DNA of 23,592 nucleotides from Promethearchaeota archaeon (GCA_018238965.1 JABCSI010000021.1:1-23592); one strand, 5' to 3'. Shown: positions 4,020-23,592, counted from the first letter of the stretch. Made by a program: numbers and translations. Notes: generated by a model from the letters alone, not told the origin.

Positions 4020-5762
4020 TTGAACATAATAGATTCAATTGTAGGGCGTTTTCGGGGCGAAAAAGTTCAATTTTTTTATCAACCCCCCGTAACTTCTGAT
4101 TTTTACTACAATGAGCATGATCTCTCGATTCCCACCTCGCCCACGATCACGCACAAAATATTCCCTGATAATATGCTCTTGGTCTTCTTTTCTTGCGTAA
4201 TCATCAAAATCGTGATACTTCTCTATGGGATATATTGTTATAATAATGGAATTTCTGCAACCACGCAAAATGTATTGGTAGGTCTTGCGGATCATTGGTG
4301 GAATCTCGAAGGCTTAAGTGATTTTAGTGGGGATTATATTACTTGGCATACAAATTGGATAAATGGGGAGGTACTTTATTCCGAAGCATTTAATGGCAGG
4401 TATTTGTATCCACCATTGTTCTATTACATGATTCACATTTTTGCCCGTTGGACGATTTTTTCAGCCCCGATTGTAATGTTAATCTGTAATATACTCACTG
4501 GGTATTTTGTATTTCGTTTGGCCAAAAATTTGGGTGCTTCCGGAAGAGCGGCAAAAATAATGATGGTCATGTGCCTACTATCTCCGTTCAACCTTTACTT
4601 CAGCGATTTTATATGGCAGAATACTGGAGTAGTAACGACCTTTATCGTAATTTCAATGTTTAAGATATCCCAAGAAAAATACAAGAGGGGCATGTTCTGG
4701 TTAGGTGTGGCGATGAGTATAAAGCAAGTGGCGTTTGTAATTTATCCATTTTTTGTAGTGGGGGTTGCTTATTCACCCTCTTTGTGGAAAAAGAACATAC
4801 AGTCACCATCACCCACTCCATCTTCTCCCCAATCTTCTTCTTCATCAAAACTTAAAATTATTGAATATATCCGAAATTTACCTGTAAGTTCCTTGATCTT
4901 TTATGGATTAATACCCTTGATAATCTTCTTAATTTCATCATATCCATTTATTTTTGAAGATCCAATTGGATATTTTGATATACTCTTTAATAATCACCGA
5001 GGTGGAAACTCTACTTGGAACTGGGATATATTCAATCAAATCGTCCCAGTTGAGCATGGAGGTACATTTATTGGTTATTTCCCCGATCTTACCCTGAATC
5101 CGGATAATAATCCATACCAATTGAATTATCGAACATCCATCGCCGTTGCTTTTGCATGGATTGGATATGTATTGGGAATTCCATCACAAATTACTGCAGT
5201 TATAGCAGTTATTTTTGAAATGCAACTGTTTTTGTATCTTTCAGCGGCTATATTAGGGTTTCTTTATTGGTGTTTTCTCAATCGCACTAAATTTTTATCA
5301 GATCAGGAATACTATTGGATAATGTGGTTCGTAGGTTCTCTCGCGTTGTTTGTGGTGATTATTTTTGCGGAAATTGGGATCTACAAATATTATTTTGTTT
5401 CCTTGACACCTACCTGGGCCATGTTTGGCGCCTTTTCTCCTCTCAACCACGATCGTTGGAAAAAAGCTCAAGAATATTCCATCGAAGAACTTTCGATGAA
5501 TCCGGCACGGTTAAAATGTCAGTTTTTTGGGGGAGGGTCATATATCCATGTGGTAGTTCAGCTGATTCTGCAAATAACCATGTTATTTTTTAATAAATGG
5601 TTGGCTGCGGCATTTTTCTATCTACCCTTATATCTAATCGCGACTTACATGTTTTTTTGGCTAATGTTCCGGCGTGATTTACTTGCAAATGTCAAGTCAT
5701 CCCCCCAAAAAATCTTTAAAATACGTTTCTCTTCTTCCAATAGGGATAAGAATGATGAATAA
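4020..5762 (+). CDS. Large polytopic membrane protein, GT-C-type glycosyltransferase-like (DUF2029/PMT-like), function unproven
   Basis: 580-aa ORF with more than 10 hydrophobic segments. An early loop 'GRYLYPPLFYYMIHIF' resembles the Y-x-Y-P-P-L loop of GT-C/DUF2029-type mannosyltransferases. It has an internal Ser/Pro-rich loop (SPSPTPSSPQSSSSS). The start is uncertain: TTG 4020 in the track, first in-frame ATG at 4173. Confidence 0.5.
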   Translation: MNIIDSIVGRFRGEKVQFFYQPPVTSDFYYNEHDLSIPTSPTITHKIFPDNMLLVFFSCVIIKIVILLYGIYCYNNGISATTQNVLVGLADHWWNLEGLSDFSGDYITWHTNWINGEVLYSEAFNGRYLYPPLFYYMIHIFARWTIFSAPIVMLICNILTGYFVFRLAKNLGASGRAAKIMMVMCLLSPFNLYFSDFIWQNTGVVTTFIVISMFKISQEKYKRGMFWLGVAMSIKQVAFVIYPFFVVGVAYSPSLWKKNIQSPSPTPSSPQSSSSSKLKIIEYIRNLPVSSLIFYGLIPLIIFLISSYPFIFEDPIGYFDILFNNHRGGNSTWNWDIFNQIVPVEHGGTFIGYFPDLTLNPDNNPYQLNYRTSIAVAFAWIGYVLGIPSQITAVIAVIFEMQLFLYLSAAILGFLYWCFLNRTKFLSDQEYYWIMWFVGSLALFVVIIFAEIGIYKYYFVSLTPTWAMFGAFSPLNHDRWKKAQEYSIEELSMNPARLKCQFFGGGSYIHVVVQLILQITMLFFNKWLAAAFFYLPLYLIATYMFFWLMFRRDLLANVKSSPQKIFKIRFSSSNRDKNDE

Positions 5763-6543
5763 AACCACTGCCACTCTTAAAAATATCATTACTGGCAATT
5801 TTACCCGATCTCAATTGTTGCGATTTATGCTTATCAGTGGTCTTCTCTTTGTTCTGAGTGCTTTTTGTTCCTGGCTTTTATATCCCGCAGAACTAAATTA
5901 TAGTATATTAACCCATACTATCTCATATCTGGGTGACTACATTCAAAATCCCAAGGGATGGGTTTTGTTTTCGGTTTCCTTCATTATTCTCGGACTCTCC
6001 TTTATTCCATTAATATTATATACCCATCGCCGAGTTATTCTTATTGAGCGATTATGGGGTATGTTGGGTACATTCTTTCTACTAGGTGGAGGTTTAGGTG
6101 TGATTTTAATCGCTTTTTTTCCGGATGTTCACGGGGCAGATTTTTTCCTTGATATGACATTGGGCAAAGCTCATGTTTTGGTGTCATTGGTTACCATGAT
6201 TATGTTTTCATGTGGGTTTACAGTGTATGGAATCTTATTTTTGTTGAATGCATACCCGAAAATTCATAAAGGGAAGCCTGATCTGTATCCAAATGCTCAC
6301 ACTCGATACGTGATTATCGCTTTTGCCATCGTTGGTCTTGGAACTCTTATCACCCAAAGAATTGCCAATATTCGAGATTATCCATGGCCCCATCCTGGAA
6401 TCTATAGTTTTCCCTTATGGGAATGGCTGCTTTCCTTCACATTCTTCGCCTCTGTTTATTGGTTGGCATATACTCTACCAAATGATATACCAATTGTTCA
6501 AGAAGTCGTGAAAACTTCACAAGTATCTCCGGAAATCGAATGA
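5752..6543 (+). CDS. Integral membrane protein, DUF998-like, paralog A
   Basis: The ORF track gives 5674..6543. I prefer ATG 5752 (MMNKTT...), which overlaps the upstream stop by 11 nt. About 6 TM segments. The motifs 'NYSILTHTISYLG' and 'FPLWEWLLS' are shared with the gene at 7547..8293. Confidence 0.6.
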   Translation: MMNKTTATLKNIITGNFTRSQLLRFMLISGLLFVLSAFCSWLLYPAELNYSILTHTISYLGDYIQNPKGWVLFSVSFIILGLSFIPLILYTHRRVILIERLWGMLGTFFLLGGGLGVILIAFFPDVHGADFFLDMTLGKAHVLVSLVTMIMFSCGFTVYGILFLLNAYPKIHKGKPDLYPNAHTRYVIIAFAIVGLGTLITQRIANIRDYPWPHPGIYSFPLWEWLLSFTFFASVYWLAYTLPNDIPIVQEVVKTSQVSPEIE

Positions 6544-6604: not shown

Positions 6605-7498
6605 ATGGAAATTCGAATTTTTGAAGATATTACGGAATTTTATGATTTAGTTTCGCCATTTCTGATGCAAAATGAAGCGAAAAATAATCTAATGCTCGCA
6701 TTACTTAATGGATTGCGTGGTAATCCTCTAAAATATGGTAACCTTCCTATTTTAATTGCTTTTCTCGATAATGATAGTGATAGAGATAATGAAAAAGAGA
6801 GTGATACTAAGAATGTTGTATTTGCGGGAATGCGCACGCCTCCCCATAATCAAATCCTTGCCTTTACCGAGAATCTTGCATATGTGGAGATGCTCGCTTC
6901 ATTTATTTATGAACAGAATCAAGATATTCCGGGAGTGTTGGGTTTCAAAGAAGGTGCCAAAAAATTCGCTCAAAAATGGGAAGAATTGACAAAAAGCCCT
7001 TTCCATCTTGATATGCATGAGAGAATCTATGAACTCTTGGAAGTAAATCCAGAAACTCTCGGAAACCACGAATTTCGGCAAGTAACAATGTCTGAACTTG
7101 ATTTAATTGTGAAATGGAGTCGAGCGATGCAATTGGAAGCTGTGGGGAGAAAATTGGATGAAGACGATGAAACTATGAAAGCAGAACTTCTAAAAAATGA
7201 TGTTTGGAAGACATTTTACGTTCTTACTGAGGACAATGGCGATGGATTGTTAACTATGGCAAAAAAATCGGGGACGACGCCCACCGGACAAATCGTTAAT
7301 TATGTTTATACTCCGCCCGAATTAAGACGGAATGGGTACGCCACTGAATGTGTGGCAAAATTAAGTCAGTTGATATTAGACGAGGGAAAACTACGATGTT
7401 TACTGTTCACTGATTTGGACAATCCTACCTCTAATAAAATTTATCAAAACATTGGATATGTGCCGGTTGTTGATATCGACGTTTATAAATTCGATTAG
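6605..7498 (+). CDS. GNAT-family N-acetyltransferase (about 300-aa form)
   Basis: 297-aa ORF. The C-terminal half has the acetyl-CoA motif 'VYTPPELRRNGYATECVAKL' (R-x-x-G-x-A type) and the terminal 'NPTSNKIYQNIGY'. An oligo-T tract and an A/T box lie upstream. Confidence 0.75.
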   Translation: MEIRIFEDITEFYDLVSPFLMQNEAKNNLMLALLNGLRGNPLKYGNLPILIAFLDNDSDRDNEKESDTKNVVFAGMRTPPHNQILAFTENLAYVEMLASFIYEQNQDIPGVLGFKEGAKKFAQKWEELTKSPFHLDMHERIYELLEVNPETLGNHEFRQVTMSELDLIVKWSRAMQLEAVGRKLDEDDETMKAELLKNDVWKTFYVLTEDNGDGLLTMAKKSGTTPTGQIVNYVYTPPELRRNGYATECVAKLSQLILDEGKLRCLLFTDLDNPTSNKIYQNIGYVPVVDIDVYKFD

Positions 7499-7546: not shown

Positions 7547-8293
7547 TTATTTTTCCCGGATAATAAACAGCAGGCTATAGAGATGTAATATGTAGGAACC
7601 TGAGAGGAGCCATTCCCATAACGGAAGTAAGGGATTGAACCAAAATAAATCCCAAAATACGTATATCCAATACATTGAGAATGCAGTGAGGAAACCCAGC
7701 ATGATAAGATCGGTAATTAGATACAACATAACGATTTGCCAGATCTTTGGCCATCCCCGCTTGTCCTTATAACTTTTGATGAATATATACATATTGAAAG
7801 AGAACCCAACAAACGATAAAAAGAAGGCTATTAAAGCAAATACATAATGTATCCATCCGGTATCTTCCGAAAAAATGCCCACTCCAAAAATTCCGATACA
7901 AGATAGAATTAGAATCGATGTACTGACGATTGAAGTGATCCGGGCGATTGGTCGGAATTTTCGATATAGGAATAATACATAAGGAATGAGAAATATTCCA
8001 GCAAAACACATACCAATGCTCCAAATAATGTGGCCATCGGAATTCTTCAACCGGTTTCCCAAGCTACTCACACTGCGTCTGAGAAATGAATAAGTAGTTG
8101 GAAATGCAAGAATGGCATAAATATTTGTGGCTATAAGTATGATGATGATAATGCTCATTGAAATGGCATATGTTTTTTTAGGAGATCGACCAGAAAGAAA
8201 TTTAAAAATTCCACCTATACACTCTCGGAAGCGATCTGAGCGAGTTGAGTGTGTTGAGCGAGTTTGCTTCTCCATTTGTAAATCTTCATCCAC
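7547..8293 (-). CDS. Integral membrane protein, DUF998-like, paralog B
   Basis: 248-aa ORF with multiple TM segments. It shares 'TYSFLRRSVSSLG' and 'LPLWEWLLS' with paralog A. It is convergent with the GNAT gene. Confidence 0.6.
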   Translation of the reverse strand: MDEDLQMEKQTRSTHSTRSDRFRECIGGIFKFLSGRSPKKTYAISMSIIIIILIATNIYAILAFPTTYSFLRRSVSSLGNRLKNSDGHIIWSIGMCFAGIFLIPYVLFLYRKFRPIARITSIVSTSILILSCIGIFGVGIFSEDTGWIHYVFALIAFFLSFVGFSFNMYIFIKSYKDKRGWPKIWQIVMLYLITDLIMLGFLTAFSMYWIYVFWDLFWFNPLLPLWEWLLSGSYILHLYSLLFIIREK

Positions 8294-8325: not shown

Positions 8326-8823
8326 TTATGCGGATAATTTCTTTGGAATCGAGTTGGGATCGAGCTGACCAGAAGTACTTTCTAGACTAATTTCCTTCTG
8401 TTTATTCAGAATATTCATTAACATGTCAATGCCATCACCAATGGAATTAAATTCCTCCGCAAAATCGTCTTGTTTTATGCCTACTAGGCAATCTACTTCA
8501 ATATAGAGTTTTTGGCTATGTTGGGAGAAGGTTACTTCGGGGAGGTCGTAGTTTAATTCCAGAGAAATTCCAAATATCGCTAGAAGATTATCATCTGCAA
8601 AATCAGCTAGATTCATAACCATGCATTTCACATGAATCCACTTCGTAAGGTTATACAAAATAACGTCAAAATCAAGTTTATTACATCGATAAGTGCAAAT
8701 TATAGCAGGAAATATCTCGCCTGATGGTTCTCCTCCTATATCCTTGAATTCAAAAGGTACCCCCATCTCTTTTAAGTGCTCACTGATCAATCCTAAATTA
8801 TTCCTTTCGTCCAGATATGGCAT
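8326..8823 (-). CDS. Hypothetical cytoplasmic protein, YbjN-like (T3SS-chaperone-like fold) by pattern
   Basis: 165-aa acidic ORF. Its alternating strand/helix pattern (ISEHLKEMGVPFEF...FDVILYN..WIHVKCMV...LLAIFGISLELNYDLP...KLYIEVDCLVG...FAEEFNSIGDGIDMLMNIL) resembles YbjN-family proteins. There is no catalytic motif. Confidence 0.35.
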   Translation of the reverse strand: MPYLDERNNLGLISEHLKEMGVPFEFKDIGGEPSGEIFPAIICTYRCNKLDFDVILYNLTKWIHVKCMVMNLADFADDNLLAIFGISLELNYDLPEVTFSQHSQKLYIEVDCLVGIKQDDFAEEFNSIGDGIDMLMNILNKQKEISLESTSGQLDPNSIPKKLSA

Positions 8824-8923
8824 GTTCTAGGTGATTATATGCAACGATCTTATATAAGAAATTTGAAAGCATTTTGACACCCGAGAGAGAAAAAATTAAG
8901 GATGAGGAAGCATACTTTAATGT

Positions 8924-9565
8924 ATGAAAGATGTTCATAAGTATCTCATCATTCACAGAGATAGTGGACTTTGCATTTTCGAGCAAACTTTTCAAGAATT
9001 TCCCAACCAATTTGATTCCAGTATACTCTCTGGTTATTTATTCGCTGTATTGACCATATCACAAGAGTTAACTGATGAGAATATTGAGTATATTCGCTTA
9101 AAAAATCTCAAGATCTCCTACAATTTATCCTTAAAATTTATTATGATTCTGATCACATCCAATGATTTGAATAACAACTACGTACAAGAGAAATTAACAA
9201 ATTTGCAAGAAATTTTCAATCGAAAATATTCCCAATTATTTCAAAAAGAATTTTCGGGGGACGTGGCGCCTTTCCAATCATTTGCGATTGATGTAGAGCA
9301 AAATTTACAAAGGGAGACCCAATATTTTCACTATGTGGATAAACGTTCAAACCAGTTGGAACAGCATTTTGATTCTTCAAAACTAAAATGGAAGGATTTT
9401 CACGCAATATTACTCGATAAAGCAGGAGTAGAAGGACAATGGTCAAAGAAAGTTCACTGCAAATTGGATAAAGTTACAGAAATTGATATCGCCCATTCGA
9501 GATTAAATTTAAAAGATCAGGATGATAAATCTCAAAAAACTTCCAAAAAACGAAATTGGGTATAA
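8924..9565 (+). CDS. Hypothetical protein with N-terminal longin-like domain and charged helical C-terminus
   Basis: 213-aa ORF. The first ~110 aa show a beta-beta-alpha-beta-beta-beta-alpha pattern typical of longin/SNARE-like regulatory folds: YLIIHRDSGLCIFEQTF / SILSGYLFAVLTISQEL / IEYIRLKNLKISYNL / KFIMILITS / VQEKLTNLQEIFNRKY. The call rests on secondary-structure pattern only. Confidence 0.4.
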   Translation: MKDVHKYLIIHRDSGLCIFEQTFQEFPNQFDSSILSGYLFAVLTISQELTDENIEYIRLKNLKISYNLSLKFIMILITSNDLNNNYVQEKLTNLQEIFNRKYSQLFQKEFSGDVAPFQSFAIDVEQNLQRETQYFHYVDKRSNQLEQHFDSSKLKWKDFHAILLDKAGVEGQWSKKVHCKLDKVTEIDIAHSRLNLKDQDDKSQKTSKKRNWV

Positions 9566-9632
9566 AATTAAGACTAAAAACGCCCCTCCCTATTATAATT
9601 ATTTCAATTTATTCTAATATCGATAAATATTT

Positions 9633-11924
9633 TTATTCAATTCGATATTCGAACGATTTGGCTAACTTTTTGTAAAGGGGTATGAAATCTTGAAATGAAT
9701 TGATTATATGAAATTGAATATAGTCAAGAAATTCTTCTGGGATAACTGATTGTAAAAGAGTTCCTCCCAAATCTAAAATTTTCATCCGGATATTTCCCTG
9801 TTTGAAGGAAGGGTGCAGGTGTTCATGAAAATCCGCAAAATCGTTCGTAGAACCATCTGTAATAAAAACTATAGAAATCGGGCGATTAGGATCTTCTGCG
9901 TGTATGTAGTCTATCAACTCATTACAATGGATAAGTGAATCTTTAACATTGGTAGATTGGCCACTGATCTCAATTGCATTATGCATCAGGGAAAGGACAT
10001 ATGATTTTAGAATCCCCGAACTCGGAATTGTCGAATCAATCCATGGGTCATTGGCCACAGTCGAAATTAAATGGGTTTTATCCGCAAATGTAAATAAGGA
10101 TGTTCGTTCCCCAATTTTTCGGGATAATTTTTCTAAGATATAAAGGAGGATGAAGAAGGTCGCCACGGTATGTCTCCGAGCATAGATTTCTGGCTTGAAT
10201 TTTAGGAAAGGTGATGGAATATTCAGTTGTTTTAAAAATACTTCCATCTTCTTAAATTCAAAATACTCTTTATCAATCCAAACGTCTTGGGAATTCATCG
10301 ATCGACTAATATCAAGCAGAAAAATCGTATCAAAGATTTCCAATTCCTCAAATTCGATCTCAATCTGGGTCGTTGGTGTCAAATTTCCTATTTCTTGCGG
10401 TCCCAAAGCGGGTTTACAGGATTTAAAAAAGAATTCTGCCTCAAAATCTGGATGTTTAATGGAGATACCTGGATAAATGAAATATTTCATGAAATGGATC
10501 CGGATTACCTCTATTCGACTTTTTATAGTTGAGGCAAGTTTCTCGTGGTTTCCCACATAATCAATGGGAATTTTGGCAAAAACTCTGAATTTTTCGAGGT
10601 TTAGAACTAATTTCTTACGTTTTTGAATAACTAATAAATCCGATTGTCCCAATTGATTATTGATAAGATTTGGATCAATATGGAATTCGTCATCTGGGAT
10701 TTCGTGCGACAATTGGATCTTTGCATACACTGTGAAAGATGAACCCGGTCGTAAAATCGCCGCAATATCCCCTTTGGCAAACCCTAATGCAGTTGCATTC
10801 CGATAATTCAATATTATCCTTCCTTGAATTTCTTCCTTAGGAATGGGTCTCAGTGTGATCTCTTTCACATTAATGATGGGTGGTTCCATGGAATAAATAA
10901 TAATTCGATGGTCGGGTTTTTTAGCGATATCTGATTCAAAAGCAGTCTCTAAATCCATTACAAGGGTATCGTCATCCATTTCTTCGAGTAATACCATGGC
11001 GATCCCATCTCCTCGGGTAATGGGATCTTCCCAAGCAACAAAAGCACCAGGGAAAACATGAAGTTTTTGGGCAAAATTGGGACTGATTACAACACAGCCG
11101 TCCAAATTGTGATTGGAAAGTTTAAAATGTGCAATGTGGGAATCTGGCTTAATTTCAACCAATTCGTAAATATCAATGCTATCGTGGTACTCCGAATCAT
11201 CGAATTCTTCTACAGGAAGTGGTATCGAATCCCTACCATCTGCTGCATCATCTGTTGTCTCCACTAATATGTCCTCGTATTCCGAGGCAATTTCATTAAA
11301 ATCAGGTTTATTTCCGGGGGTCTGCTTGTCTGCCCCTTCGACGATATCGGGTTCAGGTACGAGATCGAAATCATCTGTTATTTCTATTTTTTCAGTTAGT
11401 TCTATATCTTCCGTAATTTCTATATTCTCTGTAATCTCTACATTATCCGTAATTTCTACATTCTTCGAAATTTCAATATCTTCTGTATTGTCTTGTTTAT
11501 CCATGGGATTTTGCTTTATTATTACGGTTTTAAATAAATCTTCATCCTCCGGAGTAGGTATTGGCGCTTTTGCATGGAGAAACTCTCCCAAGAGCTGCGA
11601 TTGACTTTTCAATGAATTTTCATTCAGTTTATATTTCTTATAACCTTCGGAGGGACTCAAAAATTTCGCTCCATTTTCCACGATCACGCCACTACTTATA
11701 GGGAAAGGCATTGACTCAAATAAAATCGGTGTTGCAATTGTTCCTTCCGGTATTTCGGGGTTAATTTTCATCCTAACCGTGAAAAAATGCTTATTTTTTT
11801 TGCTTCCAGCCAAAACTCGGATTATACCACCCTCGGGAAGACCGATTTTGTGAGCGTCAAGATCATTCATTTCGGTCCCGGGAAATTGCTCAAGAATAAA
11901 GGTTGGTTGTACTTGAATCCGCAT
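9633..11924 (-). CDS. Multidomain protein: three cradle-loop/double-psi-barrel-like repeats, acidic hexapeptide tandem repeat, C-terminal vWA domain with complete MIDAS
   Basis: 763-aa ORF. There are three copies of a barrel-type motif (h-x-h-x-P/x-x-x-A-x-x-L/h-G-h-x-x-G-x-h-x-h). They are 'EMNDLDAHKIGLPEGGIIRVLAG' (aa 18-40), 'VVISPNFAQKLHVFPGAFVAWED' (aa 278-300) and 'IILNYRNATALGFAKGDIAAILR' (aa 370-392). Residues ~148-184 are (N/D)(V/I)EIT(E/D) repeats. The vWA motifs are 'FLLDISRSM' (DxSxS), 'SGQSTNVKDSL' (Thr) and 'SIVFITDGSTND' (Asp). Confidence 0.7.
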   Translation of the reverse strand: MRIQVQPTFILEQFPGTEMNDLDAHKIGLPEGGIIRVLAGSKKNKHFFTVRMKINPEIPEGTIATPILFESMPFPISSGVIVENGAKFLSPSEGYKKYKLNENSLKSQSQLLGEFLHAKAPIPTPEDEDLFKTVIIKQNPMDKQDNTEDIEISKNVEITDNVEITENIEITEDIELTEKIEITDDFDLVPEPDIVEGADKQTPGNKPDFNEIASEYEDILVETTDDAADGRDSIPLPVEEFDDSEYHDSIDIYELVEIKPDSHIAHFKLSNHNLDGCVVISPNFAQKLHVFPGAFVAWEDPITRGDGIAMVLLEEMDDDTLVMDLETAFESDIAKKPDHRIIIYSMEPPIINVKEITLRPIPKEEIQGRIILNYRNATALGFAKGDIAAILRPGSSFTVYAKIQLSHEIPDDEFHIDPNLINNQLGQSDLLVIQKRKKLVLNLEKFRVFAKIPIDYVGNHEKLASTIKSRIEVIRIHFMKYFIYPGISIKHPDFEAEFFFKSCKPALGPQEIGNLTPTTQIEIEFEELEIFDTIFLLDISRSMNSQDVWIDKEYFEFKKMEVFLKQLNIPSPFLKFKPEIYARRHTVATFFILLYILEKLSRKIGERTSLFTFADKTHLISTVANDPWIDSTIPSSGILKSYVLSLMHNAIEISGQSTNVKDSLIHCNELIDYIHAEDPNRPISIVFITDGSTNDFADFHEHLHPSFKQGNIRMKILDLGGTLLQSVIPEEFLDYIQFHIINSFQDFIPLYKKLAKSFEYRIE
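9690..10328 (-). other. vWA domain (MIDAS DxSxS...T...D) of the 763-aa protein
   Basis: Covers aa ~533-745. D538-x-S540-x-S542, T658 in GQSTN and D690 in ITDG are present in canonical order and spacing. Confidence 0.7.
11374..11487 (-). repeat. In-frame 18-bp tandem repeat (6 full units plus a partial) encoding (N/D)(V/I)EIT(E/D)
   Basis: Plus-strand units are tctgttatttctattttt / tcagttagttctatatct / tccgtaatttctatattc / tctgtaatctctacatta / tccgtaatttctacattc / ttcgaaatttcaatatct. They translate on the minus strand to DIEISKNVEITDNVEITENIEITEDIELTEKIEITDD. Confidence 0.9.
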
Positions 11925-11968
11925 AAAAAACCCCCAAAAATGCTGAAAATTCCAATTTTGGTATTAAG

Positions 11969-12005
11969 AAAAAAACGTGTTTATTTAATTTCCAATGAAA
12001 TTAAA
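11969..12005 (-). terminator. Candidate terminator: 9-bp perfect inverted repeat followed by T7 (minus-strand sense)
   Basis: tttaatttc (11984-11992) and gaaattaaa (11997-12005) are exact reverse complements with a 4-nt loop. They lie 15 nt past the Roadblock stop codon. A run of 7 A on the plus strand (11969-11975), which is T7 on the coding strand, follows. Confidence 0.35.
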
Positions 12006-12019
12006 CCAAAAATGAAGAT

Positions 12020-12406
12020 TTAAATTTTTGGATAAGTTTCACTAATTTTACCTGCATAAAATCTGAAAACTGCCACTGTTTTGCCAAGATCACGGATGGT
12101 CCGGGATGCCCCAATAAGGAAAAAGCGTCCGGCCGCAGAAATGACCATAAAACTCTTCTTTCCCCGCAGCACAACCTCAATTAACTTATTAAAGCCGATC
12201 TTTGTGATTGAATCGCTACCACTCTGGAGTAATACTGCTCCCATGGCGCAGAGACTATCAGGATCTACTTGGTAGCCGGGAATTGCCGAGAATGCTAGCC
12301 TCATACCTTCCTTTGAAACGAGCGCTAATGCTTCCAATTCAGTATTTTGTGTGATATTACTCAAATAGGCACTAAGATTCGCAGCATCTTGTTCTTTTAA
12401 TGACAT
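12020..12406 (-). CDS. Roadblock/LC7 (MglB-like) domain protein
   Basis: 128-aa ORF of single-domain size. The pattern 'LEALALVSKEGMRLAFSAIPG..VDPDSLCAMGAVLLQSG...IGFNKLIEVVLRGKKSFMVISAAGRFFLIGASR..DLGK' fits the Robl/LC7 alpha-beta-beta-alpha-beta-beta-beta consensus. A GAGG lies 8 nt upstream of the ATG. Confidence 0.75.
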   Translation of the reverse strand: MSLKEQDAANLSAYLSNITQNTELEALALVSKEGMRLAFSAIPGYQVDPDSLCAMGAVLLQSGSDSITKIGFNKLIEVVLRGKKSFMVISAAGRFFLIGASRTIRDLGKTVAVFRFYAGKISETYPKI

Positions 12407-12462
12407 TGTTTTCCTCTTCTCGATTGTAGATATACTGTTAGTGGTACTTGTTAATAAATATA

Positions 12463-13224
12463 TTAGATTTTTCTTAGGAATTCAATTGCAATTACTACTT
12501 GATTTTTTACCAAGACCCGGGGAACATATCCCTCAGCAAGGAATAAACCTTCTGGGAGAGTTGAGATGGGTTCCAAAATCCGTTCAACGGAAACTTTACC
12601 CAAGAATGGCTGCTTTTTCTCAGTGACAGAATATGATTTATCTCCCACTATCACCATTTCACGTTCGTATCCAGCCGGAACTTCATCTTCATCCAAAAGA
12701 TGGATGATATTATCAAGATTTTCTCGACTTTGGTAATTTTCTGGGGATGATTGGGAAGTTGTCGAATCTCCACCACCTGTATATAACGGTCCTGTCTGTT
12801 CAATGGAGCTATTATACTTGGTGTTCATCAATTGTGCATAGGAAGGCGCATTTTTCATAGGACCCGAAGATGATGGATCTATATCGAATTTAACATCCTC
12901 TCCATCATCTATCACCTCTTTCGCAAATCCATCGGTGGGCATATTTTCGATAGCCTCAAGGAATTCGGGGTCTTTATTGGTATCCTCCTCTTCCAGTGAA
13001 ATAGATCGGTAATTCAGCCCAACTTGGCTTCTAACAGTTTGAGATGTCCGAGCTCCGTTGAATTTCGATCGTACTTTGGCGTTTTGCCCGATCCATAAAT
13101 AGACGACTCGATTGGTATCATCTGATAAAATATAACACTCATTGCTGTCCAATAATTTCTTGATTGGAACTTGATCCTTTAACTCGTGCGCTTCGCCATT
13201 GCCCTTTACAATAAACACTTGCAT
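12463..13224 (-). CDS. Gelsolin/villin-type domain protein with unassigned C-terminal region (1-domain gelsolin + X architecture)
   Basis: 253-aa ORF. The N-terminal ~98 aa are 'MQVFIVKGNGEAHELKD..PIKKLLDSNECYILSDDTNRVVYLWIGQNAKVRSKFNGARTSQTVRSQVG..YRSISLEEEDTNKDPEFLEAI'. They follow the gelsolin-repeat consensus: strand; L/F-x-s-x-d-CYIL; iY-x-W-x-G-x-x-a; long helix; E-x-x-E-x-x-F. A low-complexity S/T/G/N linker and an ~80-aa C-terminal beta-rich region follow. Confidence 0.65.
   Translation of the reverse strand: MQVFIVKGNGEAHELKDQVPIKKLLDSNECYILSDDTNRVVYLWIGQNAKVRSKFNGARTSQTVRSQVGLNYRSISLEEEDTNKDPEFLEAIENMPTDGFAKEVIDDGEDVKFDIDPSSSGPMKNAPSYAQLMNTKYNSSIEQTGPLYTGGGDSTTSQSSPENYQSRENLDNIIHLLDEDEVPAGYEREMVIVGDKSYSVTEKKQPFLGKVSVERILEPISTLPEGLFLAEGYVPRVLVKNQVVIAIEFLRKI
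12931..13224 (-). other. Gelsolin-like domain (aa 1 to about 98)
   Basis: See the motif alignment described for the parent CDS. Confidence 0.6.
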
Positions 13225-13234
13225 TCTGTTTGTA

Positions 13235-13250
13235 CTCCTATATATATATA
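13235..13250 (-). promoter_or_regulatory. (TA)6 TATA-like box plus GGAG immediately upstream of the gelsolin-domain gene
   Basis: On the minus strand the sequence reads tatatatatata-GGAG-tacaaacaga-ATG. The TA tract sits 15-26 nt upstream of the ATG, which suggests a leaderless or short-leader promoter. The GGAG lies 10 nt upstream and is Shine-Dalgarno-like. The two readings are alternatives. Confidence 0.3.
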
Positions 13251-13275
13251 ATAATCTGATCTGCTAAAAATTATT

Positions 13276-14928
13276 TTAATTGAAAAAGTTTTTAGTTCTA
13301 AGATAGGGTCGTAACGCGTGTATCAAATCTGTCGCTTGAATTCGGTTGCCATATTTTTCCTTTGCTTCTTCTCCTAAGCGACCATTCAGATAAGTTGCAC
13401 ATATTGTTGCATTAAAGGGAGATACTCCAATAGCAAGAAAGGCTCCGGTCAACCCTGCAAGAATATCGCCAGTTCCTCCCACGGTCATTTCTGGGCATCC
13501 GGTTCGGTTTATTCGTAGATGGTGCGGTTGAAGGTCTTTTCCCTCATTGCCATTACTTCCCTTATTTCCTTCATCTCCCACATTTCCATTATGTTCCTTA
13601 TTCTTGGGTTGTGTGGTGTAATTATTGACAATATAATCATTCTTACCCTTCAAAACACATATTCCCTTAATGTTTTGGAATTTTTCAACTAAAAAGGATG
13701 CCATTTCCCCGTATTCTCCGTTTGGAGGTAATTTTGATATTTGCAGAAGTTGTTTCAGTTCCCCAACGTGTGGCGTGTAGACAATATTCGGGTTTTTGAA
13801 AGAAAATTGTTCTGAATGGATTAAATCGCCCAAGGATTTTAATGCATCGGCATCAATAACACATGGAATGTTTTTTGTGTTTATCCACTTGATGAGATTT
13901 TTGCAAAAAGTTCCCGTTTCATTGGAATTTCCGATACCAGGACCAAGAACTACGGCATCAGCCCTCGAACACAATTCTTGGGCAAGGGGGAGATCTTTTT
14001 CCGTTAAGGTTTCACTTTGACCCTCCCTAACAATTAAATTTGGGCTAAAGGAACGGATTGGAGAAGCAACAGAGGTGGGCACCAGTAAGGATACCAAATC
14101 AATGCCAAACTCTACGGCCGCTAAGGCCGCTAGGGATGGCGCGCCCGAGTATGTTTCGGATCCTCCGATAATTAATAATCTTCCATACTGTCCCTTATGA
14201 TCTTCGGGATTTCTTCGTCTCAAGCCACGACGCAAATCTCCCTTACCCACAAACCACTCCGCCTCAAGTGGGACTCCGATTGGTGCAATTTCAGTATGGA
14301 GAGCGCCGGATAATCCAATTTTTTCACGATGAAAGGTGATTCGAAAATCACATTGAACGGCAACATCCGGAACTGTTCCGGTATCGGGATCCATTCCCGA
14401 GGGAATATCGATAGATGCTTTTGGTATTTTTAGAGAATTGATTAAATTTATGGCGGATTTAATGGGTTCCCGAATTGTCCCCGAAATACCTGTTCCCAAT
14501 AATGCATCGATCGCAAGTGCTGTGGATTGGTTCAGGGAATTTGCCAAAGTGGGAGGGAACAGTGACGAATCGGATAGAATTTTGATTTGGATATTCAAGG
14601 GGAGCCTTGCCAATAGTTTCCAATTCTGTTGCGCTTCCGGAGTCCGAATCTTTGCGGGAATTCCACATAGAAAAACCTGGACTTGATATCCACGGGTGGC
14701 AAGATGGCGCGCAATCACGAAACCATCTCCTCCATTATTCCCTGTTCCACAGAAAATGGCAATCTTACTGCTCTCGGGGAGTGAATATTGCTTTAGGAGA
14801 TGTTCTGTCGCCTGTAATCCGGCGCATTCCATCAGAAGGATTTTTGGAATGCCCAAGCCTTCGGAGTTATCATCTAACCTTCCGATGTCATCTCCCATTA
14901 CGGAGCCCTTAAAAGATTTTAATCGCAT
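13276..14928 (-). CDS. nnr: Bifunctional NAD(P)H-hydrate repair enzyme Nnr (YjeF_N epimerase + ADP/ATP-dependent dehydratase)
   Basis: The N-terminal part has 'FCGTGNNGGDGFVIARHL' (YjeF_N). The C-terminal part has 'HKGQYGRLLIIGGS..YSGAPSLAALAA' and 'GGTGDILAG' (carbohydrate-kinase-like). The track start is TTG 14934. ATG at 14928 is preceded by aaGGAGaatttggaa and is the preferred start. Confidence 0.9.
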   Translation of the reverse strand: MRLKSFKGSVMGDDIGRLDDNSEGLGIPKILLMECAGLQATEHLLKQYSLPESSKIAIFCGTGNNGGDGFVIARHLATRGYQVQVFLCGIPAKIRTPEAQQNWKLLARLPLNIQIKILSDSSLFPPTLANSLNQSTALAIDALLGTGISGTIREPIKSAINLINSLKIPKASIDIPSGMDPDTGTVPDVAVQCDFRITFHREKIGLSGALHTEIAPIGVPLEAEWFVGKGDLRRGLRRRNPEDHKGQYGRLLIIGGSETYSGAPSLAALAAVEFGIDLVSLLVPTSVASPIRSFSPNLIVREGQSETLTEKDLPLAQELCSRADAVVLGPGIGNSNETGTFCKNLIKWINTKNIPCVIDADALKSLGDLIHSEQFSFKNPNIVYTPHVGELKQLLQISKLPPNGEYGEMASFLVEKFQNIKGICVLKGKNDYIVNNYTTQPKNKEHNGNVGDEGNKGSNGNEGKDLQPHHLRINRTGCPEMTVGGTGDILAGLTGAFLAIGVSPFNATICATYLNGRLGEEAKEKYGNRIQATDLIHALRPYLRTKNFFN

Positions 14929-15030
14929 TTCCAAATTCTCCTTATAAAAATAATAGGGAATTCAACTTTTTAATTTTCGCAAATATGCATCAAGGATTCA
15001 AAATTTTTCGGTTCTGAAGAGACTCTCTTA

Positions 15031-15084
15031 TTAATCTCGGATCCCGTGCGTGGTGAAACCATCCCAAAATTAAGAATATGTCAT
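15031..15084 (-). pseudogene. Possible remnant of a RelE/ParE-type toxin gene (collapsed to 17 codons with an internal stop)
   Basis: An ATG (15084-15082) overlaps the antitoxin stop in the classic ATGA arrangement. The frame reads MTYS*FWDGFTTHGIRD*. The tail loosely resembles the H-x-x-R-D C-terminus of ParE/RelE toxins. Only 146 bp separate the antitoxin from nnr, which is too short for an intact toxin. Confidence 0.3.
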
Positions 15085-15296
15085 TTTCGATTCTCGATTC
15101 GGTTCTTTAACTCATCGAGTGATAAAAGAGAATCAGGATTGAGGGTTTCCAAACGTTTATCCAATTCTTTCTTATGGCTGTTCGGGACTATAATTTCTGA
15201 ATCATCGGCTCTAATACTATCCCACAATCGTTCTAAGAGAAGAATTTTTTCCGAAGTCGGTAATTTGGCAAGATCTGGAAAAATGTTAAGTGTCAT
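15081..15296 (-). CDS. Putative addiction-module antitoxin component (TIGR02574-like)
   Basis: The 71-aa ORF is 'LPTSEKILLLERLWDSI....EIIVPNSHKKELDKRLETLNPDS.LLSLDELKNRIENR'. It matches the family pattern L-s-x-x-E-R-x-x-L-x-x-x-L-W-D-S-L ... W-x-x-x-E-L-D-R-R-L ... s-W-E-E-V-K-x-R-L. A GAGGA lies 8 nt upstream of the ATG. Confidence 0.7.
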   Translation of the reverse strand: MTLNIFPDLAKLPTSEKILLLERLWDSIRADDSEIIVPNSHKKELDKRLETLNPDSLLSLDELKNRIENRK

Positions 15297-15410: not shown

Positions 15411-16160
15411 ATGGACTCTTCAACTCCACCACCATTACGGAAAACCTTCGATGTGTCAATTCAAGCCCATCGGGGATTTAACGCCCAATATCCAGAGAAT
15501 ACACTACTATCTTTTGAAAAAGCAATAGAAGCTAAGGCGGATTATATTGAATTGGATGTTCGTGCCTCATCGGATAATCATGTTGTCGTTATGCATGATC
15601 TTGACACAGAGCGAGTAGCTGTAGATTCTCAACCCCTAATCATCGCGGATTCGACTTTGGAACAGATAAAGAGTATACAATTACCCGAAAATCAAAAAGT
15701 CCCTACCTTACGGGAAGTTTGTAAACTATGCCAAGGGAAAATAGGTTTGAACATTGAAATCACGCAATTGGGAATAACTTCTCTTGTCAATGATATCGTT
15801 CATGAATTCGGTATGGAAAAAGATGTAATGATTTCGAGTTTTCTTCATGGAGAATTGGGACTCATGCACAAATTAAATCCTTTGCTTATGTGTGCAACAC
15901 TTGAAGCCAAAGGCGGTCGTGTTAAAGGTTACATCAAGAAATCTCTCAAAGTCAATGCTTGTGGTTTAAATCCTCACCACACTGATTTTTCTCCTTCATT
16001 ATGCACACAGGCCCATGAAAATGGTTTATATTTCCATCCATGGACTGTCAATGATCCTAAGATCTGGGATGAGATGGTAGCTGCAGGAGTGGATGGAATC
16101 ATTACCGATAACCCCCAAGCCCTATATGATTACCTTCAAGATAAGGCTGTAAATTCGTAG
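15411..16160 (+). CDS. Glycerophosphodiester phosphodiesterase (GDPD family), copy 1
   Basis: 249-aa ORF with 'HRGFNAQYPENTLLSFEKAIEAKADYIELDVRASSDNHVVVMHD', matching the canonical HRG...PENT...E-x-D-V...HD motifs. The later metal-ligand motif reads 'LNIEIT'. 'HPWTVND' is near the C-terminus. Confidence 0.85.
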   Translation: MDSSTPPPLRKTFDVSIQAHRGFNAQYPENTLLSFEKAIEAKADYIELDVRASSDNHVVVMHDLDTERVAVDSQPLIIADSTLEQIKSIQLPENQKVPTLREVCKLCQGKIGLNIEITQLGITSLVNDIVHEFGMEKDVMISSFLHGELGLMHKLNPLLMCATLEAKGGRVKGYIKKSLKVNACGLNPHHTDFSPSLCTQAHENGLYFHPWTVNDPKIWDEMVAAGVDGIITDNPQALYDYLQDKAVNS

Positions 16161-16206: not shown

Positions 16207-16956
16207 ATGAAACAAACATTTGGGGTTTCTATTCATGCTCACCGTGGATTTAGCGCCAAATATCCTGAGAATACATTACTTGCCTTTGAAAAAGCAATAG
16301 AAGCCAAGGCGGATTACATTGAATTGGACGTGCATGCCTCATCGGATCACCATGTTGTTGTTATTCACGATCGGACAACAATACGAGTATCATCCCAAAA
16401 ACTTAATGTTGAAAAATCGACCTTGGAGCAAATTCAAGGCATTAAATTGAAGGGAGATCAAAAAATACCCACGTTACGGGAAGTTTGCAGACTGTGCAAA
16501 GGGAGAATCGGCATAAATATAGAAATTAAGCAAAAAGGTATAACTTCTCTTATCAATGATATCGTTCATGAATTTGGAATGGAAGAAGAGGTGATGATTT
16601 CGAGTTTTCTTCATGCGGAATTGCAAATCATGCATAAATTAAATCCATCGCTCACGATTGCTGCCCTCGAACCCAATGGCGAGAGTATTATCAAGAACAT
16701 TCTTAACGCTTTTCGTAAAGGAAAATTTATTGATAACGCTCTCTCAATCGAAGCCCAAGGGATTAATCCCCATCATCTATTCATTACGCCTTCATTGTTG
16801 TCCCGTGCTCATAAGAATGCTCTATCTATCAATCCATGGACCATTGATGATCCAAAAATGTGGGATAAGTTAGTGGCCATTGGAGTGGATAGCATCATAA
16901 CCAATAATCCGGAAGCACTCTACAAATATCTTAAAGAAAGAGCCGCAAATTCTTAG
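16207..16956 (+). CDS. Glycerophosphodiester phosphodiesterase (GDPD family), copy 2 (tandem paralog)
   Basis: 249-aa ORF with 'HRGFSAKYPENTLLAFEKAIEAKADYIELDVHASSDHHVVVIHD', 'INIEIK' and 'NPWTIDD'. By eye, roughly two-thirds of aligned residues are identical to copy 1. Confidence 0.85.
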   Translation: MKQTFGVSIHAHRGFSAKYPENTLLAFEKAIEAKADYIELDVHASSDHHVVVIHDRTTIRVSSQKLNVEKSTLEQIQGIKLKGDQKIPTLREVCRLCKGRIGINIEIKQKGITSLINDIVHEFGMEEEVMISSFLHAELQIMHKLNPSLTIAALEPNGESIIKNILNAFRKGKFIDNALSIEAQGINPHHLFITPSLLSRAHKNALSINPWTIDDPKMWDKLVAIGVDSIITNNPEALYKYLKERAANS

Positions 16957-22963: not shown

Positions 22964-23060
22964 GACCAATTCTTGAGCCAATTATCTTTATTTCAGCGAT
23001 GTTAATTTACAGTATCGATGTTTGGTCAATAATTGAGCCAATAGGACCAAAAGGACCAAT
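22964..23060 (+). promoter_or_regulatory. Cluster of repeated (G/A)NCCAAT / TTGAGCCAAT motifs upstream of the last gene
   Basis: gaccaat (22964), ttgagccaat (22973-22982), ggtcaat (23024), ttgagccaat (23033-23042), ggaccaaaa (23044) and ggaccaat (23053). The two composite 19-mers, gaccaatTCttgagccaat and ggtcaatAAttgagccaat, are 60 bp apart. Confidence 0.3.
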
Positions 23061-23079
23061 AAGAGGAAAAGAAAAAATA

Positions 23080-23592
23080 ATGAATCCACCACTTCAATCA
23101 AATGATATCGATGAAATTGATGAGACAGAAATCGGAATTGCGCTTTCTTATAATCATAATGAGCTCGGTTCGCAATTTTTGGGTATTTCAATTAATTTTG
23201 CAGCATTTGATAGCATCCTGCAATATAATATTCTCCAAGACAGTATTTCCTCCCGAACCAATGATTTAGCCTTATTCGTCGATAGTAAACATGGAACTCC
23301 TTACACGATTCGGATAAAAAAGTTCAAAACTGTTGATCCTTTGAGTCCGAAGGGGTGGAAGCGTTTTACAATCGTACTGATAATTCCTTCCAACACACCA
23401 CATTTTGATATTGAAATCGATGCAATTGCCGAAGATTTTGGTGAAAAGATATCCCAAGGGATAGACATTGACCACTCTTTGAAGGCATGGTATATTCTTC
23501 TCAATGACTGTTTCGGAAGGGTCTGCCCACAAGCATATGTTGAATCGGTTCACCAGCTGGGGCCTCCAACTCCAATTTTGGATGTATTTTAG
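23080..23592 (+). CDS. Hypothetical protein (3'-truncated by the window end), possible longin/roadblock-like alpha-beta fold
   Basis: The ORF is open to the window end. The track start is ATG 22999. I prefer ATG 23080 (MNPPLQ...), which is preceded by aaGAGGaaaagaaaaaata. The pattern EIGIALSY/ELGSQFLGIS - FDSILQYNILQDSI - LALFVDS/YTIRIKKFK/RFTIVLIIP - IDAIAEDFGEKI is beta-beta-alpha-beta-beta-beta-alpha. No motif was recognised. Confidence 0.45.
   Translation: MNPPLQSNDIDEIDETEIGIALSYNHNELGSQFLGISINFAAFDSILQYNILQDSISSRTNDLALFVDSKHGTPYTIRIKKFKTVDPLSPKGWKRFTIVLIIPSNTPHFDIEIDAIAEDFGEKISQGIDIDHSLKAWYILLNDCFGRVCPQAYVESVHQLGPPTPILDVF

Follow-up and report, generated by a model that had tools for sequence, protein, structure and literature searches.

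The stretch of DNA analyzed here, which we call the window, comprises 23,592 nucleotides from a Promethearchaeota archaeon (GCA_018238965.1 JABCSI010000021.1:1-23592). It contains three co-oriented genes, referred to below as the trio, that encode a gelsolin-homology (GH) protein of a type we call Gel1, a Roadblock/LC7 protein, and a large protein in which a vWA domain follows a series of β barrels. A preliminary description, made from the sequence alone, had placed the trio together with a longin-like and a YbjN-like gene in a cluster of eukaryotic signature protein (ESP)-type genes. An open reading frame (ORF) check of the window sequence recovers all five genes with the coordinates and orientations given there (Table 1). 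The spacing reported for the trio is also correct, with 56 bp between the GH and Roadblock genes and 95 bp between the Roadblock and vWA genes. The vWA and longin-like genes are indeed tail-to-tail, separated by 67 bp, and the longin-like gene is divergent from the fifth gene, which encodes a 165-amino-acid protein, with 100 bp between them. Identical copies of the window genes are present on contigs of GCA_030592305.1, GCA_018238315.1, and GCA_018238405.1. The window, a fragment of a metagenome-assembled genome, carries the Lokiarchaeia-type version of a gene array that extends across the Asgard archaea.

Gene order around the trio is strongly conserved in relatives, so that the refuting condition set in the preliminary description, a neighborhood unique to this genome, does not apply to the gelsolin-Roadblock-vWA order. 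We scanned one genome per GTDB species with a Gel1 alignment and examined the best 80 of the 137 relatives' loci (numbered below with the prefix L), all of which are Asgard and carry Promethearchaeota, Lokiarchaeum, Promethearchaeum, Harpocratesius, Hermod-, Thor-, Hod-, or Odinarchaeota labels. ORFs were called in every locus and searched with iterated profiles of the window proteins, and loci with enough sequence to tell were counted as informative. The conserved order is Nnr (YjeF), GH protein, Roadblock, vWA. In 73/73 informative loci the Roadblock gene directly follows the GH gene at a distance of at most 1.2 kb, and in 71 of them the two share a strand; a vWA gene is found downstream of Roadblock in 57/60. 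Upstream of the GH gene and on the same strand, Nnr is present in 58/62 informative loci; the Nnr of the window scores above the NCBIfam cut-offs of both TIGR00196 and TIGR00197. An unbiased all-against-all clustering of neighboring ORFs returned the same families and no other at similar frequency. As a control, the other genes of the window, encoding glycerophosphodiester phosphodiesterase (GDPD), GNAT, and membrane proteins, recur in at most nine loci.

Identity between the window proteins and their orthologs is 36–64% for Gel1, 52–85% for Roadblock, and ∼19–41% for the vWA protein, low enough that the gene order must have survived deep divergence. Because the synteny is phylum-wide, the adjacency of the trio is beyond chance, and the trio and Nnr together form an array that is conserved throughout the phylum and subject to strong purifying selection. 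That unrelated ESP-type genes are neighbors by chance or are passively linked could be argued from intergenic gaps long enough for independent promoters, and from the report of Liu et al. that most Asgard ESP genes lie outside conserved neighborhoods. However, order and orientation are kept in 57–73 of the 60–73 informative genomes despite protein identities as low as ∼20–40%, and the flanking genes are not kept; phylum-wide synteny refutes this explanation for the trio, and we attach practically no credence to it. The gene set of the preliminary description is thus right as regards the trio, but it lacked the conserved upstream Nnr gene, the C-terminal domain of Gel1, and the four further genes found in most lineages.

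Table 1. Genes, protein domains, and sequence elements of the array and its immediate surroundings (positions in the window)
Feature	Position	Strand	Remarks
Nnr (YjeF_N + Carb_kinase), bifunctional NAD(P)HX epimerase/dehydratase	13276-14934	-	Pfam YjeF_N 2e-42, Carb_kinase 3.5e-48
(TA)n tract	13239-13253	-	15–29 nt upstream of the gelsolin-gene ATG; read from sequence
Gelsolin-homology (GH) gene	12463-13224	-	253 aa
GH (gelsolin/cofilin-fold) domain, residues 1–105	12910-13224	-	profile, AlphaFold2, Foldseek
Low-complexity disordered linker, residues 106–164	12733-12909	-	pLDDT <50 over 109–161
Conserved C-terminal domain, residues 165–253	12466-12732	-	one helix and five β strands, pLDDT ∼90
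Roadblock/LC7 gene	12020-12406	-	128 aa
vWA gene	9633-11924	-	763 aa
Barrel 1, residues 1–92	11649-11924	-	Cdc48-N / Molydop_binding type
Hypervariable acidic low-complexity spacer, residues 93–242	11199-11648	-	between barrels 1 and 2
Barrels 2 and 3, residues 243–345 and 346–445	10590-11198	-	homologous to barrel 1
vWA domain with MIDAS, residues 531–763	9636-10334	-	DISRS motif at 10299-10313
Longin-like gene	8924-9565	+	213 aa
Longin-type domain, ∼residues 1–105	8924-9238	+	tentative; C-terminal half helical
165-aa gene (earlier label YbjN-like)	8326-8823	-	165 aa

The assignment of the first trio product to the gelsolin family holds, since both its family profile and a Foldseek search with its AlphaFold2 (AF2) model match solved gelsolins. 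Taken alone, the window protein matches Pfam PF00626 with an E value of 0.05, below significance, and the same model is matched by 4/30 homologs. A profile of these 30 homologs matches 30 gelsolin-family chains in the PDB, the best being Loki 2DGel (7whg, 2e-11), together with Thor 2DGel3 (8e-8), Thor ProGel (7c2f, 8e-6), and eukaryotic gelsolin, villin, and adseverin. The AF2 model of residues 1–105 has a pLDDT of 92–97, and a Foldseek search of the PDB with this domain returns ProGel 7c2f first (TM 0.79, root-mean-square deviation 2.4), then adseverin, fragmin, and gelsolin domains. L43, W44, and G46 are invariant in the homolog alignment.

Two further elements distinguish the protein. The disordered linker that follows the GH domain contains the motif GPLYTG (residues 145–150), in which G145, P146, L147, Y148, and G150 vary little or not at all, and the chain ends in a folded C-terminal domain with a mean column identity of 70% across lineages. 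Searched alone, this domain gave no match to Pfam and none to the PDB by profile, and hhalign finds it unrelated to the GH domain and unrelated to Roadblock; the possibility that Gel1 is a cryptic two-domain gelsolin was rejected on this ground. All 233 homologs cover the full length of the 253-aa protein, and an exhaustive profile search of a 50%-identity library yielded 301 Gel1 clusters at E ≤ 1e-10, most of which span the GH and C-terminal domains. No other gelsolin class appears to share the C-terminal domain and linker motif, except for a coiled-coil paralog. This paralog, P0224 (430 aa), has a GH domain (32% identity) and the same C-terminal domain (34% identity) without a long linker, followed by a coiled coil of ∼230 aa. 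Its layout resembles the published description of 1DGelX.

Gel1 also varies at its C terminus. Many orthologs outside the window clade carry a C-terminal tail (L022 1906–3093; P0092 and P0132; columns 340–389 of alignment A1), and the window protein has none. In many non-Loki Gel1 proteins the tail is short and basic ("..ILKDQIKxQLGG" or "..LAKSFGM.."). Forms of ∼395 aa have a long Ala/Pro-rich disordered tail with a conserved end, "...DLKKAFG..." (SLKDHLAKMGPQDLKKAFGIRV), which looks like a WH2-type LKKx motif.

The Lokiarchaeum ossiferum array corresponds, by genomic position and molecular weight, to GNAMCCOK_04217–04220. Nnr lies at L014 6392–7948 (GNAMCCOK_04217) and the Gel1 ortholog at L014 8001–8780 (GNAMCCOK_04218, "B35_Gel1"), with the Roadblock and vWA orthologs as GNAMCCOK_04219 and GNAMCCOK_04220; the computed and listed masses are 56.24 and 56.2 kDa for Nnr, 29.21 and 29.19 kDa for Gel1, and 82.84 and 82.79 kDa for the vWA protein. 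Since position and mass agree, we identify the window gelsolin protein as the ortholog of B35_Gel1. Five GH proteins were enriched in a Lokiactin coimmunoprecipitation (co-IP) from L. ossiferum (bioRxiv 10.1101/2025.11.30.690169, a preprint), among them B35_Gel1 (log2 2.08, adjusted p 0.025). The first member of the array is therefore a gelsolin-fold protein whose ortholog associates with Lokiactin. The proteome data of the same preprint show expression of each of the three trio orthologs in L. ossiferum, and an Arf is also reported there to coimmunoprecipitate with Lokiactin. Its authors describe B35_Gel1 as consisting of one GH domain and a disordered domain whose role is not known, with no mention for this protein of a folded C-terminal domain or of the Roadblock and vWA neighbors.

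Previously characterized Asgard gelsolins (Akil et al. 2020, PMC7444086; Akil et al. 2022, PMC9433394) have the GH fold in common with the window protein and provide its best matches in both sequence and structure. Akil et al. 2020 (PMC7444086) defined ProGel, 2DGel, and 1DGelX, and found that Thor proteins sever, cap, and nucleate actin. The window protein differs from ProGel in the addition of a linker and a conserved 89-aa C-terminal domain, and from 2DGel in that its C-terminal domain is unrelated to GH. 1DGelX and B35_GelX, which group together in the L. ossiferum preprint, are ∼40 kDa proteins with a GH domain and an X domain predicted to be coiled coil or disordered, whereas the window protein has 253 residues and a β-rich C-terminal domain. 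Identity with 1DGelX/GelX was rejected, as the L. ossiferum ortholog is B35_Gel1 (29.19 kDa) and not B35_GelX (39.97 kDa). The window gelsolin thus probably does not belong to the 1DGelX/GelX class, and it is set apart from Thor 1DGelX by description.

The second trio product is a Roadblock/LC7 protein, as first proposed. It scores 23.5 bits against Pfam Robl_LC7 (PF03259; gathering cut-off 23), and its L010 ortholog 27.7 bits; a profile of 38 orthologs matches two solved Roadblock/LC7 proteins, 9jue and 7f8m, at ∼2e-5. Mean column identity over these 38 Asgard orthologs is 71%. Small GTPases are the classical partners of Roadblock proteins. The window genes carry no annotated Ras/Arf GTPase, actin, or profilin family, as had been stated, and phmmer searches with HRAS and ARF1 gave no match in L001, a copy of most of the window. 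Roadblock proteins are abundant in Asgard archaea, and the domain is shared with platforms such as MglB-MglA, Ragulator/LAMTOR-Rag, and the Asgard LAMTOR1-like/Rab-like/DENN operon of Liu et al. Unlike these, the array has no linked GTPase, and the fixed partners of its Roadblock protein are a gelsolin paralog and a vWA protein, a combination that the literature searches gave for no other Roadblock system.

In two predicted proteins, P0177 (L091 730–2019) and P0246, a Ras/Roc-family GTPase domain is fused to a Gel1-type GH domain, complete in the former and partial in the latter. If real, the fusions would tie Gel1-type GH domains to small GTPases. They may be assembly chimeras, because their GH parts are very similar to an ordinary Gel1 (P0109), the GH domain of P0246 is partial, and P0177 lies on a single 2.1-kb contig; we do not rely on them as evidence for a GTPase link.

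The third trio product is a cytosolic protein and a divergent member of a well-conserved family. We assembled this family from the syntenic loci; a search with the full-length 763-aa protein gave five matches, with the acidic repeat interfering. The window protein falls below threshold in Pfam (VWA_2 16.1 versus 27), and VWA and VWA_2 are matched by 30/35 orthologs (best 8.5e-11). The metal-ion-dependent adhesion site (MIDAS) noted at the outset is complete, comprising D538-I-S-R-S542, T658 (within GQST), and T689-D690-G691. In alignments of 35–63 orthologs, D538, R541, T689, and D690 are invariant; S540, S542, and T658 are kept in at least 90% of 63 orthologs, and the vWA and MIDAS assignments hold.

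The β-barrel part is likewise confirmed and can be specified as three homologous double-psi-barrel-like (DPBB-like) domains. Pfam Molydop_binding matches the N-terminal barrel in 15/35 orthologs (best 7.9e-8) and CDC48_N matches it in 4/35 (best 1.9e-5); the PDB profile search gave a weak match to the Cdc48 N domain (E 0.2). Pairwise hhalign probabilities among the barrels are 97.3% (N-M2), 97.4% (M1-M2), and 87.7% (N-M1). In the ortholog alignment, conservation is lowest and gaps are most abundant in the spacer between the first and second barrels. In the window this spacer includes an 18-bp tandem repeat at 11377–11483 (5.9 copies by Tandem Repeats Finder) that encodes (N/D)(V/I)EIT(D/E) units. 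The spacer varies by lineage and is P/T-rich in MK-D1. In the L. ossiferum vWA gene, ORFs rich in repeats occur on either strand and suggest that another short repeat may be present.

The closest solved relative of the vWA domain is the Sulfolobus vWA2 protein 5a8j (1e-4 by PDB profile), which we take to be of the ArnB type. The Arn system is accompanied by FHA and kinase partners, but there is no FHA or kinase partner in the window or in the relatives' loci. Copines (C2-C2-vWA) offer a second comparison: the Pfam Copine vWA model is matched by 10/35 orthologs, and the layout of a β-rich N terminus and a C-terminal MIDAS vWA domain is alike. In the array protein, however, the N-terminal domains are DPBB-like barrels and not C2 domains. 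Relative to both archaeal vWA regulators and copines, the linkage to a gelsolin and a Roadblock protein is new.

Sec23/24, the inner coat of COPII, is built from a vWA-like trunk, a β barrel, and a gelsolin-like domain. The occurrence of the same three domain types across adjacent genes raises the possibility of a split, primitive Sec23/24-like coat in which Roadblock or longin proteins replace the GTPase or SNARE-binding partners. We consider this highly improbable on domain membership. Sec23_trunk, Sec23_BS, Sec23_helical, and zf-Sec23_Sec24 all lack a Pfam match at E ≤ 0.01 in 35 orthologs. Searches with the GH domain, by PDB profile and Foldseek, return actin-binding gelsolins and no Sec23/24 chain, and none occurs in the PDB-profile list for the vWA protein. 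In contrast to Sec23/24, the domains here are in separate genes, the barrels are double-psi rather than the Sec23 β sandwich, the GH domain falls among the actin-binding gelsolins, linkage to a Sar1/Arf gene is lacking, and the Gel1 ortholog coimmunoprecipitates with actin.

In most lineages the array is longer. Among 53 loci with enough downstream sequence, 40 have four more same-strand genes after the vWA gene, encoding an AbrB/MazE-plus-ACT protein (139 aa), a protein of ∼250–280 aa, an actin-family protein (392 aa), and a CHAT-domain protein (∼855 aa). Most non-Lokiarchaeial Asgard genomes have this extension, as at L010 10830–14840, L024 9919–14488, and about 40 other loci; at L024 and L027 the vWA gene is missing and the four-gene block is kept. 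The ∼250–280-aa protein, whose matches are weak and all of the coiled-coil type, is probably a coiled-coil protein. The actin-family protein matches Pfam Actin at 3e-47 and is 28% identical to human β-actin, an identity that points to an actin-related protein (ARP)-like paralog rather than Lokiactin. The array is thus joined to an actin-related gene in most lineages. The four genes are absent from the window and from the available sequence of its close relatives, and in this lineage they are thus not adjacent to the trio.

In place of this block, the window has the longin-like and 165-aa genes, which the preliminary description counted as part of the cluster. They prove not to belong to its conserved part. 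The two genes are always found together and divergent, and they are limited to L. ossiferum, Promethearchaeum syntrophicum, and a Promethearchaeum sp. (3/80 species loci) plus the window genome; Harpocratesius and other close relatives lack them. The pair is a Lokiarchaeial lineage-specific addition, and its adjacency to the trio possibly reflects a loose linkage confined to that lineage. A further idea, that the pair corresponds in diverged form to the ACT/p277 pair, was rejected, as hhalign comparisons of the longin-like and 165-aa proteins, p277, the ACT protein, Roadblock, and the GH and C-terminal domains of Gel1 reveal no relationship between any of them. In L. ossiferum the vWA and longin-like genes are separated by an inserted RNase H gene (L014 11657–12142; Pfam 1e-36).

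The longin-like call itself has tentative support. At the sequence level there is no significant match: neither the window protein nor two orthologs match a longin-type Pfam family (Longin, Clat_adaptor_s, Sybindin, Sedlin, and the like), a PDB profile search gave nothing relevant, and an hhalign comparison with AP2 sigma2, though co-linear, falls short of significance (E 0.3). The AF2 model, made from four sequences only, is poor (mean pLDDT 51), but its elements follow the order ββ-α-βββ-α (E5–11, E17–20, H32–48, E54–59, E62–68, E72–78, H85–101). Most of the top 50 Foldseek matches of this poor model in the PDB, including all of the best-scoring ones, are recognizably longin or Roadblock folds (AP2 sigma 6e-4, Sec22b 4e-3), with low TM scores of 0.16–0.42. 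It is plausible, on this tentative modeling evidence, that the 213-aa protein carries an N-terminal longin-type domain. The YbjN-like label (PF10722) of the 165-aa protein is not upheld, there being no Pfam match at E ≤ 1 for the window protein or at E ≤ 0.1 for the L. ossiferum ortholog, and nothing from NCBIfam or PDB profile searches of the 165-aa protein. It is 50–55% identical to its orthologs in L014, L015, and L016.

Several other features surround the array. The (TA)n tract upstream of the gelsolin gene is a candidate archaeal TATA box, in which case the gelsolin gene may have its own promoter. A sigma-70 promoter and terminator scan of the window gave uninformative counts, at or below shuffled expectation, the model being bacterial and the host archaeal. 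Beyond the 165-aa gene, paralogous multi-pass membrane proteins (289 and 248 aa, with no Pfam family) flank a GNAT acetyltransferase gene (5674–6543 and 6605–7498 on the plus strand, 7547–8293 on the minus strand). The same membrane-protein gene pair directly follows the vWA gene in Harpocratesius and a related metagenome-assembled genome (L011, L012), both of which lack the longin-like pair. On the other side, tandem GDPD paralogs lie at 15411–16160 and 16207–16956 on the plus strand, and a 71-aa ORF (15081–15296, minus strand; tied to Unstab_antitox in the source annotation) lies between them and Nnr. A partial 197-aa ORF (22999–23592, plus strand) runs off the end of the window. In three further Lokiarchaeial genomes, homologs of this ORF are located a short distance upstream of Nnr (L014 4423–4911, L013 114–623, L017 1836–2360), and the L. 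ossiferum homolog has a weak match to Pfam Folliculin (E 0.022), a family that presumably represents the longin-type N-terminal region of folliculin. The cluster may have in the 197-aa ORF another, loosely linked, gene of the longin-like kind.

As the preliminary description anticipated, the array does not match any described system, with nothing returned by PADLOC, NCBIfam, or literature searches. None of the five window proteins matched a PADLOC model, and neither did the L010 vWA ortholog or the four extended-array proteins, so the array is not a known defense system, and an anti-phage role was rejected for want of any component match. Open-access full text in PMC and bioRxiv yielded no description of the array or of an Asgard gelsolin/Roadblock/vWA combination. 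Liu et al., who found most Asgard ESP genes to lack conserved neighborhoods, give other operons and not this array, and according to Tran et al. the GTPase genes of MK-D1 generally do not share operons with Roadblock genes. The array is best described as a gelsolin-Roadblock-vWA module of known domain families, previously unremarked in the searchable literature.

The proposed link between this module and actin is supported by the co-IP of the Gel1 ortholog with Lokiactin, by the match of the GH fold and profile to solved actin-binding gelsolins, and by the actin-related gene in the array of most other lineages. We consider it a somewhat better than even prospect that the array is an Asgard-wide actin-linked module in which the Gel1, Roadblock, and vWA proteins work together. 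In such a model, the GH domain would contact actin or an actin-related protein, for which the co-IP of the L. ossiferum ortholog gives support. Docking to a Roadblock dimer may be provided by the Gel1-specific C-terminal domain and linker motif. The metal-ion site and barrels of the vWA protein could then act as an adaptor that couples Gel1 to another partner or location, or gates that coupling.

A number of observations weigh against this model. Binding among the trio proteins is predicted from genomic context, and the GH domain of the window, at ∼21% identity to ProGel, is divergent and a predicted actin binder. Median intergenic gaps of 145–172 nt are not operon-tight, the Roadblock gene is inverted in a few lineages (L008, L018–L020), and T-rich tracts separate the Roadblock and vWA genes in the window; any co-transcription is accordingly putative. 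A small GTPase was not found as a conserved neighbor, with one Arf-like gene among 83 neighborhoods by ORF clustering. The GTPase-platform part of the preliminary description may still hold, given the classical pairing of Roadblock proteins with small GTPases and the Arf in the Lokiactin co-IP, but no GTPase is genomically linked and the two GTPase-GH fusions may be assembly artifacts. In the L. ossiferum data (bioRxiv 10.1101/2025.11.30.690169), the vWA ortholog was not enriched with Lokiactin (log2 −0.02, p 0.96), and the Roadblock ortholog appears, among the matches listed, in the whole-proteome sheet only. Log2 abundances in the proteome are also uneven, at ∼19.8 for Gel1, 15.7 for Roadblock, and 16.9 for the vWA protein. 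Finally, the Nnr ortholog GNAMCCOK_04217 was enriched as well (log2 1.66, adjusted p 0.015), so part of the co-IP enrichment may be indirect.

The lack of enrichment of the vWA ortholog bears on a different explanation, in which the conserved module is real and its business is not the regulation of Lokiactin. The module would then be a signaling or proteostasis unit, made up of Roadblock and vWA and, in most lineages, of the AbrB-ACT and CHAT proteins encoded downstream, that uses the GH domain simply as a protein-binding module; alternatively, it would serve the ARP of the cluster rather than the main Lokiactin cytoskeleton. Such a role would fit the Cdc48-N-like character of the barrels, the conservation downstream of CHAT (caspase-like) and AbrB-ACT regulator-like proteins, the dedicated ARP gene in 40/53 loci, and the fact that the most constant upstream neighbor is Nnr, a metabolite-repair enzyme. 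It is harder to reconcile with the co-IP of the Gel1 ortholog with Lokiactin and with a GH profile that is nearest to actin-binding Asgard gelsolins. Furthermore, the trio persists with no ARP/CHAT block beside it in the window lineage and in other Lokiarchaeia, so it does not require those genes as neighbors. We regard this explanation as unlikely, though deserving of weight, and retain the actin-linked module as our working model.

An extended form of the actin-linked model takes in the whole array. Here the trio and the AbrB-ACT, coiled-coil, ARP, and CHAT proteins would form an ancestral, phylum-wide Asgard cytoskeletal machine, in which a Roadblock dimer and a MIDAS adaptor position and switch a severing or capping protein of the gelsolin type dedicated to the machine, as well as, in most lineages, a dedicated ARP. 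We hold this larger proposal to be distinctly doubtful.

Published work treats Asgard gelsolins as free-standing actin regulators. The array ties one gelsolin paralog, phylum-wide, to a highly conserved Roadblock protein and a MIDAS vWA protein, and in most lineages to an ARP too. It provides concrete candidate partners in the two cultured Lokiarchaeia and, for an Asgard Roadblock protein that has no GTPase linked to it, what may be a first function. The C-terminal domain of Gel1 is a conserved new domain whose structure is worth solving. If the larger proposal is true, the cytoskeletal machine would be a prokaryotic forerunner of the eukaryotic coupling of actin remodeling to Roadblock/longin platforms and MIDAS contacts.

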